A DNA stretch of 53,158 bases, from positions 1 to 53,158 of the forward strand of contig CAYMIC010000001.1 in assembly GCA_964390615.1 (NCBI GenBank). The letters run 5' to 3'. This stretch comes from an uncultured Candidatus Saccharibacteria bacterium. Lineage in GTDB: Bacteria; Patescibacteriota; Minisyncoccia; Phycocordibacterales; UBA9973. Below the pieces are notes generated by a model. It was not told where the DNA came from. It saw only the letters and a program-made list of their open reading frames with translations, and made no database searches. Positions 16,535 to 39,929 of this stretch are shown piece after piece. The position numbers were made by a program, and so were the translations under genes. Numbering within the stretch: position 1 is the stretch's first letter; each line of letters starts with the position of its first letter.

Positions 16535-16553
16535 GACTAGGTCTTGCCTAGTC
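16535..16553. repeat. REP-like hairpin, left copy
   Basis: 7-bp stem gactagg/cctagtc with loop tcttg. The 3' arm contains the TAG stop of the transposase gene. Confidence 0.8.
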
Positions 16554-17207
16554 ACTTTTGAAAGTTAACCATTCAAAAATCTCTCTCGAAAATTCCTTCT
16601 TTGAATTAAAGTAGACTGGAAATGCTTTGTAATTTAGAATTTTGTTTTGCAATCTTTCATTGCCTTTATAATCTACATAGCTAGAGTATTCATAGTTATC
16701 TAAGTAATCTAAAGTTTCTTTTTTATTCTTTATCCCCTTTTCTTTCCAGTCTTTATCTATTAACTTTACAGCATTTAAATGAATATATGAAAAAATGTAT
16801 TTTAAATATCGATCAGTATTTAAATATTGTGATTTAAATTTACCCTCAAATAAACTACCAGTTCTTTGATATTTTTTATTGTAATACATTACATACGCAG
16901 TAGTAAGTTTTTGCATAAATTTACTTATGCTTCCGTTCTCCGTTTCAGTAACTAAAATATGAAAATGGTTTGGCATAAGAGTATAGGCTCCTATGCTAAC
17001 CAATAAATTACCCCGCTCAAAATCAAAAGGACTTTCTCCTTTATTCAATCCATAGCTTCTAAAGTTATTAACTGAGTTACAAGCAAACAATAACCCTACA
17101 AAGTGACGATAATCTTCCTTGTCATGAAATATTTTTTGCTTACTATTGCCCCTGTTATAAATGTGATAAAACTCACCCAAGACAAAAGCTTGTTTACGTG
17201 TTGACAT
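16548..17207 (-). CDS. REP-associated tyrosine transposase / IS200-like Y1 HUH transposase
   Basis: 219 aa from the first ATG (the track start at 17228 is TTG). Motifs YHIYNRGN, HUH motif LMPNHFHILV and catalytic Tyr motif YIHLNAVK. Confidence 0.8.
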   Translation of the reverse strand: MSTRKQAFVLGEFYHIYNRGNSKQKIFHDKEDYRHFVGLLFACNSVNNFRSYGLNKGESPFDFERGNLLVSIGAYTLMPNHFHILVTETENGSISKFMQKLTTAYVMYYNKKYQRTGSLFEGKFKSQYLNTDRYLKYIFSYIHLNAVKLIDKDWKEKGIKNKKETLDYLDNYEYSSYVDYKGNERLQNKILNYKAFPVYFNSKKEFSREIFEWLTFKSD

Positions 17208-17213
17208 GTTTAT

Positions 17214-17242
17214 ATTATATTGAAACAAAAATGACTAGGCAA
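17214..17242 (-). promoter_or_regulatory. Transposase promoter with its -35 inside the right hairpin
   Basis: Minus strand reads TTGCCT (17242-17237), 17 nt, TATAAT (17219-17214), then 6 nt to the ATG at 17207. This predicts a leaderless mRNA. Confidence 0.5.
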
Positions 17243-29090: not shown

Positions 29091-29399
29091 TTATTTCTTT
29101 GCCTTCAACTCTTTTCTCTTTAGAGTTGGCTTTTTCTTAGAGAGCACATTGATGGACTTACCTTCAATGATTTTTTCTTTAACTAGAAAGTTGTGCATAG
29201 TGTCTGAAAGTTTTGCACCTTTACTGATCCAGTACTTTATCTTTTCACCATCAAAAGAAGTAGTGCCTGCCTTAGGATTGTAAGTGCCTACCACTTCCAA
29301 AAACTTACCACTCTTGGCTGCGTTTTTAGAATCAGTTAAAACTGCCCGAAAAGCTGGGTCGTTCTTTCTACCTATTCTTTGTAATCTGATTTTTAACAT
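29091..29399 (-). CDS. rpsP: 30S ribosomal protein S16
   Basis: 102 aa starting MLKIRLQRIGRKNDPAFRAV, with a Lys-rich tail. Confidence 0.93.
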   Translation of the reverse strand: MLKIRLQRIGRKNDPAFRAVLTDSKNAAKSGKFLEVVGTYNPKAGTTSFDGEKIKYWISKGAKLSDTMHNFLVKEKIIEGKSINVLSKKKPTLKRKELKAKK

Positions 29400-29405
29400 A
29401 GAAAC

Positions 29406-29433
29406 AATGTATCACAATTCCTTAAAATTGCAA
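29406..29433 (-). promoter_or_regulatory. Putative rpsP promoter (leaderless geometry)
   Basis: Minus strand reads TTGCAA (29433-29428), 16 nt including TGa, TACATT (29411-29406), then 6 nt to the ATG at 29399. Confidence 0.45.
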
Positions 29434-29439
29434 ATAGCT

Positions 29440-30375
29440 TTAGTTGGAAGAGATTCCATAGCCACCTGACTGATAGACTGAACCTGAGGATGAAGACGAG
29501 CGACTATAAGACCGAACATTAGTATAACCCTTCACAGATTTTTGACGAGTTTTGTTCTTGTAGCCTTTGACGTCGTAGTCACCATCAACATCGTTATAAC
29601 CTTTTACATCATAATCACCATCTACTTCATAGAAACCCTTGATACTGTAAAAACCTTGAACTTGGTAAAATCCTGGAATTTCGTAGTAGCCTTTAATATT
29701 GTAAAATCCTGGAACTTCATAAAAACCTGGCACAGTGTAAAAACCGGGAATTTCATAGAAACCTTTTACGGTGTAAAAACCCTTTACTTCACTATAACCC
29801 AAGATAGTATAGTACCCCTTTATATCAACATCAGAATATCCGTCGATAACATAGTATCCTAAAACTGCATAGCTTCCAGGAACACTATAGTGTCCAATTA
29901 CAGAGTAATGACCAGGAATAATATAATATCCATTGATTACATAACTACCAGGCACGCTATAACTTCCAGTAATCGAATAACTACCAGGAATAAAGTAACT
30001 CCCTGGAATACTATAACTACCAACTACGGCGTAACTTCCTGGTACAAAATACTGTCCGTTGATTATGTAACTTGCTGGAACAGTATAACTTCCTGGAATC
30101 ACATATTGTCCATTGATGATGTAACTACCTGGTATGACGTACTGACCGGAAATAACATAATGCCCACCACTGACATAACTACCAGGGATTGGATAGTCTC
30201 CATCAATCACATAGTTTCCATGAACATCAAAATGCCCCGGGATTATGTAGTGTCCGTATATTTCATAAGATGGGCCACAGTCGCAAGGGCAACCACAAGA
30301 AGCTTCAAGAGGTCCTGAAGATATGGCAAAAAGGCCAAAAACAAAGAGTATTCCTAAAAGGTATTTATATTTCAT
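29440..30375 (-). CDS. Secreted Tyr/Gly-rich hexapeptide-repeat protein (novel repeat; function unknown)
   Basis: 311 aa. Signal peptide MKYKYLLGILFVFGLFAISSGPLEA, Cys cluster CGCPCDCGP, then about 39 consecutive units x-Y-x-[VI]-x-G (for example SYVIPG, QYVIPG, SYSIPG, FYEIPG, DYDVKG), and a Ser-rich tail. Confidence 0.8.
   Translation of the reverse strand: MKYKYLLGILFVFGLFAISSGPLEASCGCPCDCGPSYEIYGHYIIPGHFDVHGNYVIDGDYPIPGSYVSGGHYVISGQYVIPGSYIINGQYVIPGSYTVPASYIINGQYFVPGSYAVVGSYSIPGSYFIPGSYSITGSYSVPGSYVINGYYIIPGHYSVIGHYSVPGSYAVLGYYVIDGYSDVDIKGYYTILGYSEVKGFYTVKGFYEIPGFYTVPGFYEVPGFYNIKGYYEIPGFYQVQGFYSIKGFYEVDGDYDVKGYNDVDGDYDVKGYKNKTRQKSVKGYTNVRSYSRSSSSSGSVYQSGGYGISSN
29563..30270 (-). repeat. 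18-nt periodic coding repeat (about 39 units)
   Basis: Covers aa 36-271 of the repeat protein. One unit is expanded to 8 aa (YSDVDIKG). Units diverge at the DNA level. Confidence 0.85.
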
Positions 30376-30384
30376 TACCTATAT

Positions 30385-30413
30385 AGTATAGCATATTCAA
30401 ACCAATTTGTCAA
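30385..30413 (-). promoter_or_regulatory. Near-consensus promoter of the repeat-protein gene
   Basis: Minus strand reads TTGACA (30413-30408), 17 nt ending in TGc, TATACT (30390-30385), then 9 nt to the ATG at 30375. Confidence 0.55.
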
Positions 30414-30435
30414 TATGCCTAGGATATGCTATATT
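30407..30435 (+). promoter_or_regulatory. rnr promoter, divergent and sharing the -35 region
   Basis: TTGTCA (30407-30412), 17 nt ending in TGc, TATATT (30430-30435), then 6 nt to the ATG at 30442. Confidence 0.55.
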
Positions 30436-30441
30436 TAAGGC

Positions 30442-32373
30442 ATGAAAACCCCTAAAAACCGCCTGTCCGGCACTATCTCTATCACCGCCAAAGGTACTGG
30501 TTATGTCACTCCTCTCGGCACCATCGGCAAGAAAAATAAAGATGAAGATATCGAAATAGATTTCAAACACTTAAACACCGCACTCCATGGCGACACGGTA
30601 GAGATTTCCCTGCTCCCTAAAACTAGTAAACGCATTCAAGGTGAAGTGATACAAGTTGTCACTAGAGCCAAAACAAAATTCGCTGGAGTCCTAGAAAACG
30701 AAGGAGGTATTTTTTACCTTCGCCCAGACGACATCAAAATGTATACAGATATAATAGTATTAGAAAAAAATTTAGCTGGCGCAAAACATGGAGACAAAGT
30801 CATAGTCTCGATGTCTCCTTGGACAGATCATCGTAAAATGCCGGAAGGTGTCGTCGCTAAAGTCGTTGGACGCCCAGGAGACAATGATGCCGAAATGCAC
30901 TCGATTGCTCTTGAAAAAGGTTTTGACTTTGACTTACCAGAAAAGGTTCACAGCGAAGCAAAAAAAATAAACCAAGCCAAAATTACAGAAAAAGATTATG
31001 CCGGCCGTCGAGACTTTCGCAAAGTACTAACCTTTACTATCGACCCCGCAGATGCAAAGGACTTTGATGATGCTATATCTTTTGTTGAATTAGGAAAAAA
31101 TCTTTTTGAAGTTGGAATACATATCGCTGACGTCTCCTACTATGTCCGCCCTGGCAGCGAACTCGATCACGAAGCACAAGAGCGAGCAACTTCGGTTTAC
31201 TTGGTGGACCGTACTATCCCGATGCTACCTGAAATTCTATCAAACGACCTCTGTTCCCTAGTACCAAACCAAGATCGCCTCACCATGAGCGCAGTATTTG
31301 AAGTAGATACAGAAGGAAAAGTTCACAAAGAATGGTATGGACGCACTGTGATTCATTCTCAAAAAAGATTTACCTACGAAGATGCAGAAAAGAGTATTCA
31401 CGAAAATTCTGCACCACTACACAAAGAACTTGAAATCCTAAATAACATTGCTAAAAACTTAACCAAGGAAAGATTTAAAAAAGGAGCCATATCTCTCGAA
31501 GCTGATGAAGTAAAATTTGTCCTAGATTCGCAAGGTGTTCCACTAAAAGTTATCAAAAAAGTTCGCGGAGACTCCAATAAACTAATTGAAGAATTCATGT
31601 TGCTTGCCAACAGAAAAGTAGCTGAAACAGTTTCTAAAAAATGGAAAAAAGAAGGAGTATTTATCTACCGTGTCCACGACGCACCATCAAAAGAAAAAAT
31701 GGAAGACCTCGCTTATTTCTTGCGCGGACTAGGACAGAAAGTTATCTTGAAAGATGGAATAATCCCAAACTACGAGATCAACAACATCATGAAACGTCTC
31801 GAAGGTAAAACCGCCGAAGATACTCTTCACCGCATGGTGATCCGCTCTATGGCTAAAGCTATCTACACCACCGTAAATATCGGACACTATGGACTCGCAT
31901 TTGCATACTACACCCACTTTACTTCCCCTATCCGTCGCTACCCAGACATCATGGTACACCGCATGCTCTCGGCATTCCTCGAAGGCAAAAAAGTAGAGAA
32001 GGATAAATTAAAAGAATTCGAAAGCCTGGCTCGAAAATCCTCAGAACAAGAAAAGAAAGCTGCTGAGGCTGAACGTGCTTCTGTAAAATACAAACAAGTA
32101 GAATATATGAGCAAGAGAATCGGCGAAACATTCTCTGGAATAATTTCTGGAATCACCGAATGGGGTTTATATGTCGAAGAAGTAGAAACCAAGTGTGAAG
32201 GCTTGGTCAAAGTCCGAGATCTCAATGATGATTTTTATATCTTTAACGAAAAGAAACTTGAATTAGTGGGTCAGAAAAAGAAAAAGAAATACACCCTCGG
32301 CGATAAAGTAAAAATGAAAGTAAAAGGTGTCGACTTGGAAAGAAAAACTATCGACTATATACTAGTATCATAA
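30442..32373 (+). CDS. rnr: Ribonuclease R (RNase II/R family 3'-5' exoribonuclease)
   Basis: 643 aa. RNB motif FTIDPADAKDFDDAISF, HYGLAFAYYTHFTSPIRRYPD, and a C-terminal S1 domain FSGIISGITEWGLYVEE. Confidence 0.9.
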   Translation: MKTPKNRLSGTISITAKGTGYVTPLGTIGKKNKDEDIEIDFKHLNTALHGDTVEISLLPKTSKRIQGEVIQVVTRAKTKFAGVLENEGGIFYLRPDDIKMYTDIIVLEKNLAGAKHGDKVIVSMSPWTDHRKMPEGVVAKVVGRPGDNDAEMHSIALEKGFDFDLPEKVHSEAKKINQAKITEKDYAGRRDFRKVLTFTIDPADAKDFDDAISFVELGKNLFEVGIHIADVSYYVRPGSELDHEAQERATSVYLVDRTIPMLPEILSNDLCSLVPNQDRLTMSAVFEVDTEGKVHKEWYGRTVIHSQKRFTYEDAEKSIHENSAPLHKELEILNNIAKNLTKERFKKGAISLEADEVKFVLDSQGVPLKVIKKVRGDSNKLIEEFMLLANRKVAETVSKKWKKEGVFIYRVHDAPSKEKMEDLAYFLRGLGQKVILKDGIIPNYEINNIMKRLEGKTAEDTLHRMVIRSMAKAIYTTVNIGHYGLAFAYYTHFTSPIRRYPDIMVHRMLSAFLEGKKVEKDKLKEFESLARKSSEQEKKAAEAERASVKYKQVEYMSKRIGETFSGIISGITEWGLYVEEVETKCEGLVKVRDLNDDFYIFNEKKLELVGQKKKKKYTLGDKVKMKVKGVDLERKTIDYILVS

Positions 32374-34283
32374 TGAACTGGCGATCTCGATCCAAATTAA
32401 AAATTATTTTATACACTCTCCTACCAATTGTCGTGGGAATTTTGTCCGTGTCCTTGGTATGGAATCTTTCAAGCGCAAAAAAAATATCGCAATCTGCGAA
32501 CATTCAAAAAATCTCTGAAGATGTAAGCGGAGCAACTCCAGTCGAGGGTGATGCTTCAGACGGCAAACCAAAGTATTTTTACTTTAACAAAGGGCAATCT
32601 CAGAAACCCAATCTCTCCGCTGAAGCCTATATCGTGGGCGACCTAAATACTGGAGAAATAATTTTAATTAAAAACCAAGACAAGAGATATCCTATCGCCT
32701 CAGTTTCTAAACTGATGACTGCCCTAGTAGCCAACGACTTAAAAGGAGATGGAGACATAGCTCAAGTATCCGCCAGAGCACTCGCTACTTATGGACAAAA
32801 TGGTGGATTTTATACTGGAGAAAAAATAAAAATTTCAGATTTGTTTCATCCACTTCTCCTCGAGTCTTCAAACGATGCTGCCGAAATCATAGCAGAATAC
32901 TTTGGCCGAGATAGATTTTTACGAGAAATGAACGATCATGCAGCAGGATTAAAAATGACTTCAACTTTTTACAATGATCCTTCTGGACTCTCAGCCCAAA
33001 ATCAATCCACTGTATCAGATTTATTTAAAATGGCTGGCTACATCAGCCAAAAAGAACCAGAACTTTTAAAAATCACTACTGAAAAAAGTTATTCTAATAA
33101 AAAACACACTTGGTTTTCAAACAATCAATTCTTGCACAAACCAGAATACCTAGGCGGCAAAAGCGGTTATACTGACCCCGCTCGCCAAACAGTCGTATCA
33201 CTTTTTAATCTACCACTTGGAGAAAATATCAGTCGACCAGTGGGTATAGTTTTGCTTCGTAGCCAAGACCGACAAAGAGATGTAAATAGCATTTTGAATT
33301 ACTTAAAAAAGTATGTTTACTATGGTGGAGCATCTGATGCCAACTCAGACTGGATAAAAGAAAAACTTGATATTCCAGATATTTTTGATCCGACTTATGT
33401 GACCTTGAATTTCCTAGGTGATATCATGCTTGATCGTGGAGTACGAAACTCAGTCAATAAAAACTTTGGTGGAGATTATTCCCTACTCTTTGATAAAATG
33501 GAAGATTTCAAAGAAGCTGATATTGTATTTGCAAATCTTGAAGGTCCAGCTTCCAACAAAGGTAAAGATTTGAATAACTTATATTCTTTCCGAATGGATC
33601 CTTCGGTATTACCAGCTCTAAAAGGTGCTGGGTTATCCATAGTATCCGTTGCCAATAATCATGTCGGTGATTGGGGTCGTGAAGCTTACGAAGACACCTT
33701 GGCTCGTCTAACTGAAAATGAAATAGAATACACTGGTGGAGGCACAAGAGAAAAAGCAGAAAATCCAACTATCATAGAAAAGTATGGCATGAAGATAGGA
33801 TATCTAGGATTCACCGATGTCGGACCCACTTGGATGGAATCTAGCGGTGATATCCCCGGAGTACTTTTAGCCAGCGATCCTAGGTTTGAAGAAATTATTA
33901 AAAATGCTAGCGCCCAAGTTGATCAACTCATAGTCTCCTTTCACTGGGGTGAAGAATATAAAACAAAACACAATGCTCGCCAAGAAAGCCTCGCGCACAA
34001 AGCCATCGACGCTGGGGCCAAAATCGTTGTTGGACACCATCCACACGTCATGCAAGACACCGAAGTATATAAAAATGGCTACATCATCTACTCACTCGGC
34101 AACTTTATCTTTGACCAAAGATTTTCCAAAGATACAACCGAGGGAATGCTCGCTGAAGTAAAAATAAAAAAAGACGGCTCTATCACCGTCCGCAAAAATA
34201 TAGTCAAATCGAACTCCCTCTTCAAGCCATCCGAAATAGTCAAAGCTAAAGAAGAAATCATTAAATTCCTCCCCGTGCAATAA
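32373..34283 (+). CDS. Fusion protein: serine DD-carboxypeptidase (peptidase S11/PBP5-like) plus CapA/PGA_cap metallophosphatase-like domain
   Basis: 636 aa with an N-terminal TM. PBP motifs ASVSKLMT (SxxK), ESSNDAAE (SxN) and GGKSGYT (K[ST]G). CapA motifs from about aa 340: FLGDIMLDRG, ANLEGP, VANNHVGDWG, SFHWGEEY, GHHPHVMQ and YSLGNFIFDQ. The start overlaps the rnr stop (taATG). Confidence 0.85.
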   Translation: MNWRSRSKLKIILYTLLPIVVGILSVSLVWNLSSAKKISQSANIQKISEDVSGATPVEGDASDGKPKYFYFNKGQSQKPNLSAEAYIVGDLNTGEIILIKNQDKRYPIASVSKLMTALVANDLKGDGDIAQVSARALATYGQNGGFYTGEKIKISDLFHPLLLESSNDAAEIIAEYFGRDRFLREMNDHAAGLKMTSTFYNDPSGLSAQNQSTVSDLFKMAGYISQKEPELLKITTEKSYSNKKHTWFSNNQFLHKPEYLGGKSGYTDPARQTVVSLFNLPLGENISRPVGIVLLRSQDRQRDVNSILNYLKKYVYYGGASDANSDWIKEKLDIPDIFDPTYVTLNFLGDIMLDRGVRNSVNKNFGGDYSLLFDKMEDFKEADIVFANLEGPASNKGKDLNNLYSFRMDPSVLPALKGAGLSIVSVANNHVGDWGREAYEDTLARLTENEIEYTGGGTREKAENPTIIEKYGMKIGYLGFTDVGPTWMESSGDIPGVLLASDPRFEEIIKNASAQVDQLIVSFHWGEEYKTKHNARQESLAHKAIDAGAKIVVGHHPHVMQDTEVYKNGYIIYSLGNFIFDQRFSKDTTEGMLAEVKIKKDGSITVRKNIVKSNSLFKPSEIVKAKEEIIKFLPVQ

Positions 34284-38975: not shown

Positions 38976-39929
38976 TTATTTATTCTCTTTGGAAAGTAGT
39001 TCCACCGCTTTGGCAATCAACGGGATGATGTCATTGTAAATCCGAAGCTCCGGAATCTCAGACAACTGAAACCATTTCGCACCATCGAGACCTCCAGAGG
39101 ACTCCAACATTAATTCATGGTATTCACTCTCGGCCAAAAAGTACGAAACATGTTTCAAAGTCTTTCCTTTCTCTGGATGTGTCGCCACATATTCGTTTTC
39201 GCCCAACTTGGTAATTATTTTTATATCTAGCCCTATTTCATCTTTGATTTCTCCGACTGTACCATCCTCTTCACTCTCGCCTTCTTCAATATGACCTTTA
39301 GAAAGTGTCCAGTAGCCAAAAACATCGTGAACTAATGCGAAATATAAAACTCCATCTTTGCGAGCGTAAACCAAAGCACCACCTAAAGATTCTTTGGGAA
39401 GTTTAGTAATGTCTACTGGTTCTTGTTCTTTTTTCTTTTTACTTGTCTCCTCCTTGCCTGGTTCACCTATTTCCTTATACACCGCACCAAGAACTCCATT
39501 GACAAATTTACCAGAATTTTCACCACCGAAAGTTTTTGCAAGTTCGATAGCTTCATTGATAGCAACCTTGGGAGGAACTTGAGTGCGGTCGCCGAACAAG
39601 AGTTCGGTGAGTCCAATACGCAAAATATTTCTATCGACAACTGAGATCTTTTCAATCGGCCAATCTGGTGCAGCTTTTTCTATGATCTCATCGATTACTT
39701 TTTGTTTTTTCAAAATCTCCTGAAGAAGCGAGAAGACAAAAACATCGTCTTCAAGTCCAGGAGCAAATTCTTTTAAATTTCGAGTGACTACTTTCTTGAT
39801 TTCATCATCAGTCCAGCCAGTTTTATCTTCCAATCCTTTCGGACCCTGATCTAGAGGACCAGTCGGCAAGAAATCCCACTCAAAGAGGGTCTGAAGAACT
39901 ATTGATCTTGAAAGGTGCCTGTTTGCCAT
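38976..39929 (-). CDS. nusB: NusB antitermination factor fused to a C-terminal Nudix hydrolase domain
   Basis: 317 aa. The NusB part is RSIVLQTLFEWDF...DRNILRIGLTELLF...AINEAIELAKTFGGENSGKFVNGVLG. A Lys/Glu linker follows. The Nudix box is GHIEEGESEEDGTVGEIKDEIGL, which fits GX5EX7REUXEEXGU with R to G and E to D. Confidence 0.8.
   Translation of the reverse strand: MANRHLSRSIVLQTLFEWDFLPTGPLDQGPKGLEDKTGWTDDEIKKVVTRNLKEFAPGLEDDVFVFSLLQEILKKQKVIDEIIEKAAPDWPIEKISVVDRNILRIGLTELLFGDRTQVPPKVAINEAIELAKTFGGENSGKFVNGVLGAVYKEIGEPGKEETSKKKKEQEPVDITKLPKESLGGALVYARKDGVLYFALVHDVFGYWTLSKGHIEEGESEEDGTVGEIKDEIGLDIKIITKLGENEYVATHPEKGKTLKHVSYFLAESEYHELMLESSGGLDGAKWFQLSEIPELRIYNDIIPLIAKAVELLSKENK

Follow-up and report, generated by a model that had tools for sequence, protein, structure and literature searches.

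Which product does a bacterium keep between the core genes rpsP and rnr, when almost the whole of it repeats one six-residue pattern, and what would such a pattern build outside the cell? This question is raised by one gene in a stretch of 53,158 nucleotides (contig CAYMIC010000001.1 of assembly GCA_964390615.1; the whole of this stretch is termed the window below), and the gene encodes a repeat protein of 311 amino acids with a predicted signal peptide. The reading that we prefer, giving it a little less than an even chance (a probability of roughly 0.45), is that the product is an exported β-rich extracellular rod, fibre or coat, with conserved ends that would serve in assembly or anchoring. 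Four other loci bear directly on it: the Logan assembly of SRR12487046 (L001), syntenic orthologues in a metagenome-assembled genome (MAG; L002) and in a metagenome contig (L082), and a more distant cousin in Nomurabacteria MAG_121 (L026). The gene and its parts are as follows.

29440..30375, minus strand: coding sequence of the repeat protein, complete, 311 codons plus stop, ATG start; orthologues judged to be under purifying selection; identical protein in assembly L001
30301..30375, minus strand: predicted signal peptide, residues 1-25, MKYK / YLLGILFVFGLFAI / SSGPLEA, read from the sequence by the von Heijne -3/-1 rule
30271..30300, minus strand: Cys cluster SCGCPCDCGP, at the predicted start of the mature chain; conservation is limited to the first CxC (CGCD in L002/L082, CDC in L026)
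29839..30270, minus strand: N-terminal repeat block, residues 36-179, 24 hexads, mostly [SQH]-Y-x-[VI]-[P/x]-G; 0 Lys/Arg, 5 Asp/Glu, grand average of hydropathy +0.24
29815..29838, minus strand: single octad YSDVDIKG, residues 180-187, with the register shifted by two residues
29563..29814, minus strand: C-terminal repeat block, residues 188-271, 14 hexads, [FY]-Y-[TEQSN]-[VI]-[KPDQ]-G, ending in DYDVKG/YNDVDG; charged, acidic
29443..29562, minus strand: C-terminal tail YKNKTRQKSVKGYTNVRSYSRSSSSSGSVYQSGGYGISSN, with a basic stretch, a Ser run and a Gly/Tyr end; identity to the orthologues 87-92% over residues 274-311

The order of parts is thus signal peptide, SCGCPCDCGP (directly following MKYKYLLGILFVFGLFAISSGPLEA), 24 hexads, one octad, 14 hexads and tail. 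Judged by the n/h/c and -3/-1 rules, the protein would be exported via a Sec-type signal peptide, as the preliminary description of this DNA had proposed, and signal peptidase I would cut after Leu-Glu-Ala, leaving a mature chain of ~31 kDa. A lipoprotein was considered and rejected by reading, since there is no lipobox: L-E-A-S precedes Cys27, Glu occupies the -3 position, and the hydrophobic core ends 9 residues ahead of the Cys. In the same check, the residues before the Cys of L026 read S-A-Q-A-C.

The array itself covers residues 36-271, that is 236 amino acids in 38 hexads and one octad. Position 2 is Tyr in 35 of the 38 hexads (Phe, Ser and Asn occur once each), position 4 is Val or Ile in 37 (Ile 20, Val 17, with one Ser) and position 6 is Gly in 37 (with one Ala), so that the near-invariant x-Y-x-[VI]-x-G hexads with a single 8-residue unit, noticed at first sight, were borne out by the counts; Pro occupies position 5 in 15/38. 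The pattern Y.[VI].G is found 33 times, against a mean of 1.5 and a maximum of 6 in 2000 shuffles of the same residues, and residue autocorrelation reaches 0.48-0.50 at lags 6, 12 and 18; outside the multiples of 6, no lag up to 30 exceeds 0.07. The periodicity is far beyond chance, and it was counted in favour of an ordered extracellular structure. A collagen-like (Gly-X-Y)n organization was rejected, as Gly recurs at every sixth residue and the lag-3 autocorrelation is 0.017. Along the array the residue at position 1 changes gradually from S/H/Q to Y/F and then to D/Y, and charge is unevenly distributed: residues 180-273 hold 8 Lys and Arg and 14 Asp and Glu (isoelectric point 4.3), and the 38 residues of the tail (274-311) hold 6 Lys and Arg and no Asp or Glu (isoelectric point 10.4). 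The compositional shift that had been described earlier is therefore present both in the position-1 residues and in the charges of the segments.

Is such an array a true product of the genome? To the extent that sequence data allow, misassembly of the repeat block, the doubt attached to the gene when it was first described, is excluded. Exact DNA repeats within the gene reach 14 nt at most, which is not enough to make an assembly collapse or expand, and the Logan assembly L001 encodes an identical protein, with 9 differences from the window over 8.8 kb and 0 in the gene. At the DNA level the repeat copies (36-nt unit) are 61-75% identical, and Tandem Repeats Finder gave matches of only 63-73%. 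The DNA repeats are thus old, yet the amino-acid pattern is nearly perfect, which implies selection on the pattern. Recent horizontal transfer was also considered and rejected, since the GC content of the gene (38.1%, against 38.9% for the window) and its codon preferences, which are like those of rpoB and rpoC of the window, fit the host.

The orthologues in L002 and L082 are 293-294 amino acids long and 63% identical overall to the repeat protein; L002 derives from SRP286056, a project on Polish wastewater and river water (PMC9405806). In the orthologue comparison the RNase R of L002 is 93% identical to that of the window and RpsP 96-98%, and identity within the repeat protein differs by part, with 90-93% in the first 35 residues (residues 1-21 are identical), 54% in the repeats and 87-92% in the tail. 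Both orthologues have retained Val/Ile at position 4 and Gly at position 6, the best-kept positions of the hexad. Because the ratio of non-synonymous to synonymous divergence (dN/dS) is 0.127 for L002 against L082 and 0.30-0.31 for the window against either orthologue, the gene is judged to be under purifying selection. The array evolves ~9-fold faster than RNase R at non-synonymous sites, and synonymous divergence (dS) between the window and L002/L082 is far from even: ~0.10 in the first 30 codons, 0.29-0.40 in the tail and 1.8-1.95, that is saturated, in the repeats, with 0.66-0.91 in the flanking rnr and 0.22 in rpsP. Such mosaic divergence suggests repeat turnover or recombination within an otherwise conserved frame.

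The cousin in L026 (4702..5763, minus strand, 354 amino acids) occupies the same site beside an RNase R that is 63% identical to that of the window, and it has the same strand and architecture: a signal peptide is followed by CDC, GSYWLNGQYFANGDYP and 50 hexads in phase, of the form [DS]-Y-x-[TV]-[LP]-A, some of the N-terminal hexads being common to both proteins (NGQYF, GDYP). Position 2 is aromatic in 50/50 units (Tyr 49, Phe 1), position 4 is β-branched and position 6 small. Unlike the repeat protein of the window, the cousin is rich in Ala, Asp and Leu, lacks the conserved basic/Ser tail and shows a strict 12-residue super-repeat with Pro and Leu alternating at position 5. The two proteins align in phase by BLASTP at E=5e-29, a value inflated by periodicity. 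When a hexad is defined by an aromatic residue at position 1 or 2, a β-branched one at 4 and a small one at 6, the window, L002/L082 and L026 all encode, between rnr and rpsP, a protein with a signal peptide, a CxC and no fewer than 24 hexads in phase, and we refer to these proteins as the Tyr-hexad family. Word-indexed homologue searches with the repeat protein, with an alignment of the two orthologues and with the L026 protein returned no further members, which is weak evidence since the 15-billion-protein collection omits all four members. A scan of genome contigs with the repeat protein found none either, and its patterns, taken from the variable repeats, missed even L002, which was located via the neighbouring rnr gene; a scan of viral contigs was likewise negative. 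By these searches the family is an orphan, confined to three closely related Nomurabacteria lineages.

This narrow distribution, together with the fast repeats and the direct adjacency of rpsP and rnr in most relatives inspected, where the two genes diverge, may be taken to mean that the gene is a dispensable, rapidly decaying insertion without specific function, lodged in a permissive hot spot beside a strong promoter, its repeats being kept by repeat dynamics only. We find this very improbable. A decaying gene should approach a dN/dS of ~1, not 0.13-0.31; lineages that differ in rnr at a dS of 0.5-0.9 have kept the frame, the signal peptide, the CxC and the tail; and it would be difficult to reconcile repeat dynamics with amino-acid units that stay nearly perfect over DNA copies so diverged.

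Which known structures are built on such a pattern? Neither Pfam nor NCBIfam gave anything significant for the repeat protein (only Drf_FH1, whose 17 bits fall short of its cut-off at 40, and GvpQ at E=0.14), and a PDB sequence search returned only HP1028 at E=0.48, in agreement with the initial impression that the repeat is not that of a described family. A phmmer search, run exhaustively over 1.84 billion representatives, yielded 608 matches at E≤0.001, with a best value of 1e-28 and none at or below 1e-30. The x-φ-x-φ-x-G register, taken as the one common to these matches, was counted in favour of the β-rich reading. All 22 of the matches that were inspected carry a generic x-φ-x-φ-x-G hexad, and Tyr is found at the first hydrophobic position in 0 of the 22. 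Among these 22 are a phage tail fibre with a Peptidase_S74 chaperone (P0001), a YadA stalk with its anchor (P0023) and three proteins that pass the Pfam Bactofilin threshold (P0011, P0029 and P0089, 32.8-55.9 bits), one of which also matches YdcK (2f9c). In PHROG the repeat matched families of unknown function, the best being phrog_31248 at E=3.5e-19, where the match lies within the repeat, and tblastn against phages gave only periodic analogues, 24-35% identical, in tail proteins. On these comparisons the repeat is best described as a Tyr-fixed variant of the widespread β-helical x-φ-x-φ-x-G hexad, not as a member of a curated family. The register had been said to set it apart from the classical left-handed β-helix; this holds, although the register is not unique, being the hexad of bactofilin-like solenoids, tail fibres and trimeric adhesins.

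The comparison with individual systems is instructive in this respect. Left-handed β-helices (e.g., YdcK, 2f9c) have a six-residue period and one aliphatic residue per unit, as the repeat protein does, but they need a small residue at i+4, where the repeat protein has bulky Tyr in 35/38 hexads; their motif [LIV]-[GAED]-x-x-[STAV]-x is not followed, with Pro, Lys, Asp or Asn at i+1 and Gly at i+2, no Hexapep match (PF00132/PF14602) appears even at E≤10, and the repeat protein lacks an enzyme context. Bactofilins have the register in common (positions 2 and 4 hydrophobic, position 6 Gly), yet they are cytoplasmic proteins of ~6 windings without a signal peptide, whereas the repeat protein has a signal peptide (judged by reading), 39 units and a fixed Tyr, and Bactofilin (PF04519, gathering threshold 27.9 bits) gives no match for it even at E≤10. 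Silkmoth chorion proteins, also secreted and structural, in which Gly recurs with a period of six and hydrophobic residues alternate, make up an extracellular protective amyloid and belong to a eukaryotic family, and Chorion_1 (PF01723) gives no match for the repeat protein. Their hexapeptide repeats were long modelled as a solenoid, and cryo-electron microscopy revealed β-serpentine cross-β stacks instead (PMC13252134). Since the solenoid model of chorion was overturned, periodicity alone cannot decide the fold of the repeat protein. The ice-nucleation protein is likewise extracellular and built of long tandem repeats, and it has been modelled as a β-solenoid with Thr and Tyr arrays, the Tyr forming ladders (PMC9418140); it differs in its 16-residue repeat, its unrelated sequence and its nature as a Gram-negative outer-membrane protein. 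Ice-binding and mineral-nucleation roles were considered for the repeat protein and set aside. A resemblance in overall layout is seen with phage tail-fibre shafts and the stalks of trimeric autotransporters (e.g., GSLNVTG, NVNGVS), extracellular fibres which have long uninterrupted hexad arrays and supply the best phmmer matches, but these are analogues of 20-35% identity without Tyr at position 2.

Several observations weigh against an ordered β-rod and have to be set beside the evidence above. The lack of any Pfam, NCBIfam or PDB sequence match is one of them. AlphaFold2 returned very low confidence, with a mean predicted local distance difference test (pLDDT) score of 35 for the full-length protein in single-sequence mode and of 30 for a 72-residue block with an internal-repeat alignment, whose effective depth was 3 after MAFFT realigned the shifted windows natively. 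Three Tyr per 18-residue turn would make a very bulky core for a triangular solenoid, and no clear super-period of 12 or 18 residues fixes the number of hexads per turn, as lags 12 and 18 score about equally in the super-period analysis (2 against 3 hexads per turn). In the L002/L082 orthologues Tyr at position 2 is replaced in about one third of the units, usually with Phe or Tyr at position 1, and four one-residue phase breaks are tolerated; the L026 cousin has Ala, not Gly, at position 6 and a helix-compatible composition. The β-solenoid or fibre with a Tyr ladder that had originally been proposed was not borne out by the two AlphaFold2 runs, and the Tyr-ladder solenoid is treated here as a hypothesis; the dityrosine-crosslinkable matrix and the S-layer-like component named with it are at most candidate roles.

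Poor monomer predictions would be expected if the protein were an obligate trimer. It may be imagined as a homotrimeric fibre, a triple β-helix in which the three chains would make up the sides of a triangular prism, one each, stapled together via disulfides or metal by the CxC that is conserved at the predicted mature N-terminus. With 18 residues per 4.8 Å layer assumed, such a trimer would make a rod of ~19 nm, against ~6 nm for a single-chain solenoid. The strongest periodic analogues do include trimeric fibres (P0001 with Peptidase_S74, P0023 with YadA), as well as P0009, trimeric-adhesin-like by eye and without a Pfam match, a Rathayibacter phage tail protein and a Synechococcus phage tail fibre, and the match to phrog_31248 points the same way. 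All of them are periodic analogues, 20-35% identical, not demonstrable homologues, and Pfam finds in the repeat protein no Peptidase_S74 or other trimerisation module and no YadA_anchor; there is neither a chaperone domain nor a receptor-binding tip, and the C-terminus is the basic/Ser/Gly-Tyr tail. We therefore hold the trimer to be rather improbable.

The same AlphaFold2 results may be read in another way, namely that the protein has no defined fold and acts as a disordered chain in which regularly spaced Tyr (and Phe) residues are stickers of an extracellular gel, glue or cross-linkable matrix. The sole feature in common with L026, despite different neighbours, is an aromatic residue every six residues (50/50 hexads there); the tail (SYSRSSSSSGSVYQSGGYG) recalls the low-complexity domains with [G/S]Y[G/S] motifs; and relatives carry at this locus other genes with GGYGG/RGG-rich ends. 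Stickers would not require, however, that Val/Ile at position 4 and Gly at position 6 be 97% invariant and better kept in the orthologues than Tyr itself, and no tyrosinase or peroxidase was seen among those genes of the window, only 53 kb long, that were annotated. Composition speaks against disorder too. The array consists of 18.5% Tyr, 22% Val and Ile and 16% Gly, with Val, Ile, Tyr and Phe together at ~45%, and the 2P+G value of the repeat region is 0.30, low for an elastomeric or disordered repeat; an elastin-like or elastomeric protein was rejected on this value. Elastomeric disordered proteins are reportedly typified by a 2P+G of about 0.6 or more, a figure that goes back to Rauscher and co-workers in 2006. 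Composition thus favours ordered β structure over an elastomer, and we think the disordered chain unlikely, while keeping it in serious consideration.

For the exported β-rich rod, fibre or coat, the following course of events may be envisaged, in which we infer the β structure, the ladders, oligomerisation, anchoring and role. The gene would be transcribed from a near-consensus promoter into a nearly leaderless mRNA, and the product would leave by Sec export and be cut by signal peptidase I, so that a ~31-kDa mature chain starts at the CxC motif. Each hexad would then form a short β-strand (x-Y-x-V/I) and a turn (x-G, often P-G, N-G or D-G), and the units would stack in an elongated cross-β architecture, either as a single-chain β-solenoid or through intermolecular strands that form a fibre, with Tyr, Val/Ile and Gly placed on one face as aromatic and aliphatic ladders. 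In its N-terminal two thirds, which are uncharged, the chain would be cohesive or buried, and the acidic last third, decorated with Lys, Asp and Glu, would be exposed to solvent. The conserved ends (CxC; basic/Ser/Gly-Tyr tail) may be oligomerisation or envelope-anchoring modules around an array that would be a fast-evolving scaffold, the most likely role being adhesive or protective, as a rod, fibre or coat of the cell surface.

A bolder proposal goes further and must be called a long shot: the repeat protein, L002/L082 and L026 might found an undescribed class of bacterial extracellular β-fibres or solenoids, with a continuous Tyr ladder of one Tyr per six residues over 38-50 units, made abundantly from a promoter of ribosomal-protein grade in ultra-small episymbionts of the candidate phyla radiation (CPR). 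Such a protein could be an adhesive or glycan-binding fibre, or a functional amyloid coat, for contact with the host cell, which the CxC and the basic tail would assemble or anchor.

The sites that bear on transcription are as follows.

30413..30385, minus strand: promoter-like site of the repeat gene, TTGACA-17-TGcTATACT, 11/12 consensus positions, TG extension, 17-nt spacer
29406..29433, minus strand: putative rpsP promoter, TTGCAA-16-TG-a-TACATT, then 6 nt and the ATG at 29399; inferred from a by-eye alignment with 11 insert-free relatives

The preliminary description had counted the first of these among the best promoters, which proved to be an understatement, as it is the single best match to the sigma-70 consensus in the 53-kb window. 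Because only 9 nt (ATATAGGTA) separate the -10 box from the ATG, the mRNA is probably leaderless or has a very short leader. Upstream of the gene, the 73-nt region differs at 1 position from its counterparts in L002 and L082. An architecture of the same kind (TTGC..-spacer-TGnTA..CT, 6-8 nt, ATG) precedes rpsP in relatives, and in the window the rpsP site, which scores below the threshold of 9/12 used in the consensus scan, sits in the 40-nt gap past the stop of the repeat gene. No minus-strand terminator was found between the two genes (29400-29440), so that read-through into rpsP is possible. With its own promoter of this kind, the repeat gene reads as an independent, rpsP-style transcription unit, and high expression of the protein is plausible, to judge from promoter consensus.

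In the repeat gene, rnr (promoter site at 30407..30435, plus strand) and rpsP alike, the -10 box lies 6-9 nt before the ATG, without usable Shine-Dalgarno spacing. The same closeness was seen for rpsP in 11 relatives (L003, L006, L007, L008, L012, L014, L016, L017, L018, L021 and L023), which suggests that leaderless or near-leaderless mRNAs are common in this lineage.

As for the meaning of such a gene, the genomes of Patescibacteria are tiny, and a gene that they retain next to rpsP with a near-consensus promoter probably has a bearing on the cell surface. Of their biology this surface, with host attachment and envelope architecture, is the least understood part. An ordered protein would offer a natural and very regular Tyr/Val-Ile ladder repeat, of interest for work on β-solenoids, functional amyloids and protein materials. 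A disordered one would be the bacterial, secreted equivalent of low-complexity domains with Tyr stickers. The narrow distribution of the Tyr-hexad family (three lineages) limits the significance of the finding.

The surroundings of the gene belong to the core genome. The window carries rpoB, rpoC, a sigma-70 gene, dnaG and the genes for SMC, RNase III, NusB and ThrRS, and the local order is trmD-khpA-rpsP, repeat gene, rnr; the flanks named at the outset were recognised by their Ribosomal_S16 and RNB domains. By the relatives of its RNase R, the window is placed in the Patescibacteria (CPR), 'Candidatus Nomurabacteria'/Paceibacterota. A minority of the relatives inspected have a lineage-specific gene for a secreted low-complexity protein between rpsP and rnr, on the strand of rpsP, which marks this intergenic site as a hot spot where Nomurabacteria would appear to acquire, and rapidly remodel, secreted Tyr/Gly-rich proteins.

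The inserts between rpsP and rnr, all on the minus strand, were located in L004 (5441..5845), L005 (5526..5846), L011 (5322..5810), L015 (4518..5897), L020 (4927..5844), L024 (2687..3334), L026 (4702..5763), L031 (5210..5899) and L066 (4715..5770). Several of them have, by eye, a hydrophobic, signal-like N-terminus, and several end in Gly/Tyr/Arg-rich low-complexity tails (GGYGGGYGGRGGY...). The insert of L015 differs, with IPT/TIG-like repeats and a PG_binding_1 domain.

The array is also crossed by open reading frames (ORFs) on the opposite strand, both in the window and in L082.

29542..29862, plus strand: antisense ORF through the array, 106 amino acids
29890..30318, plus strand: antisense ORF through the array, 142 amino acids
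L082 3713..4438, minus strand: antisense ORF through the array, 241 amino acids

The two in the window were rejected as real genes, since they lack start context and it is the minus frame that has the signal peptide, the conservation and a dN/dS below 1. Antisense frames of this kind are probably kept open by the codon composition of the repeats (few Leu codons), not as independent genes.

Three other ORFs of the window deserve a short description. At 38976..39929 (minus strand) a single ORF of 317 amino acids joins a NusB domain (7-152) to a NUDIX hydrolase domain (203-302) and may be an unusual fusion. The ORF at 32373..34283 (plus strand, 636 amino acids), whose start overlaps the rnr stop by one base, combines Peptidase_S11 (D-Ala-D-Ala carboxypeptidase) with PGA_cap (CapA-like). 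Finally, the ORF at 16548..17228 (minus strand), starting MSTRKQAFVLGEFYHIYNRGNSKQKIF...PNHFHILV, resembles by eye a Y1 transposase of the IS200/RayT type; similar N-termini are found in L012 (3757..4419) and L039 (2326..2985), and the element recurs near trmD-rpsP in other Nomurabacteria loci.

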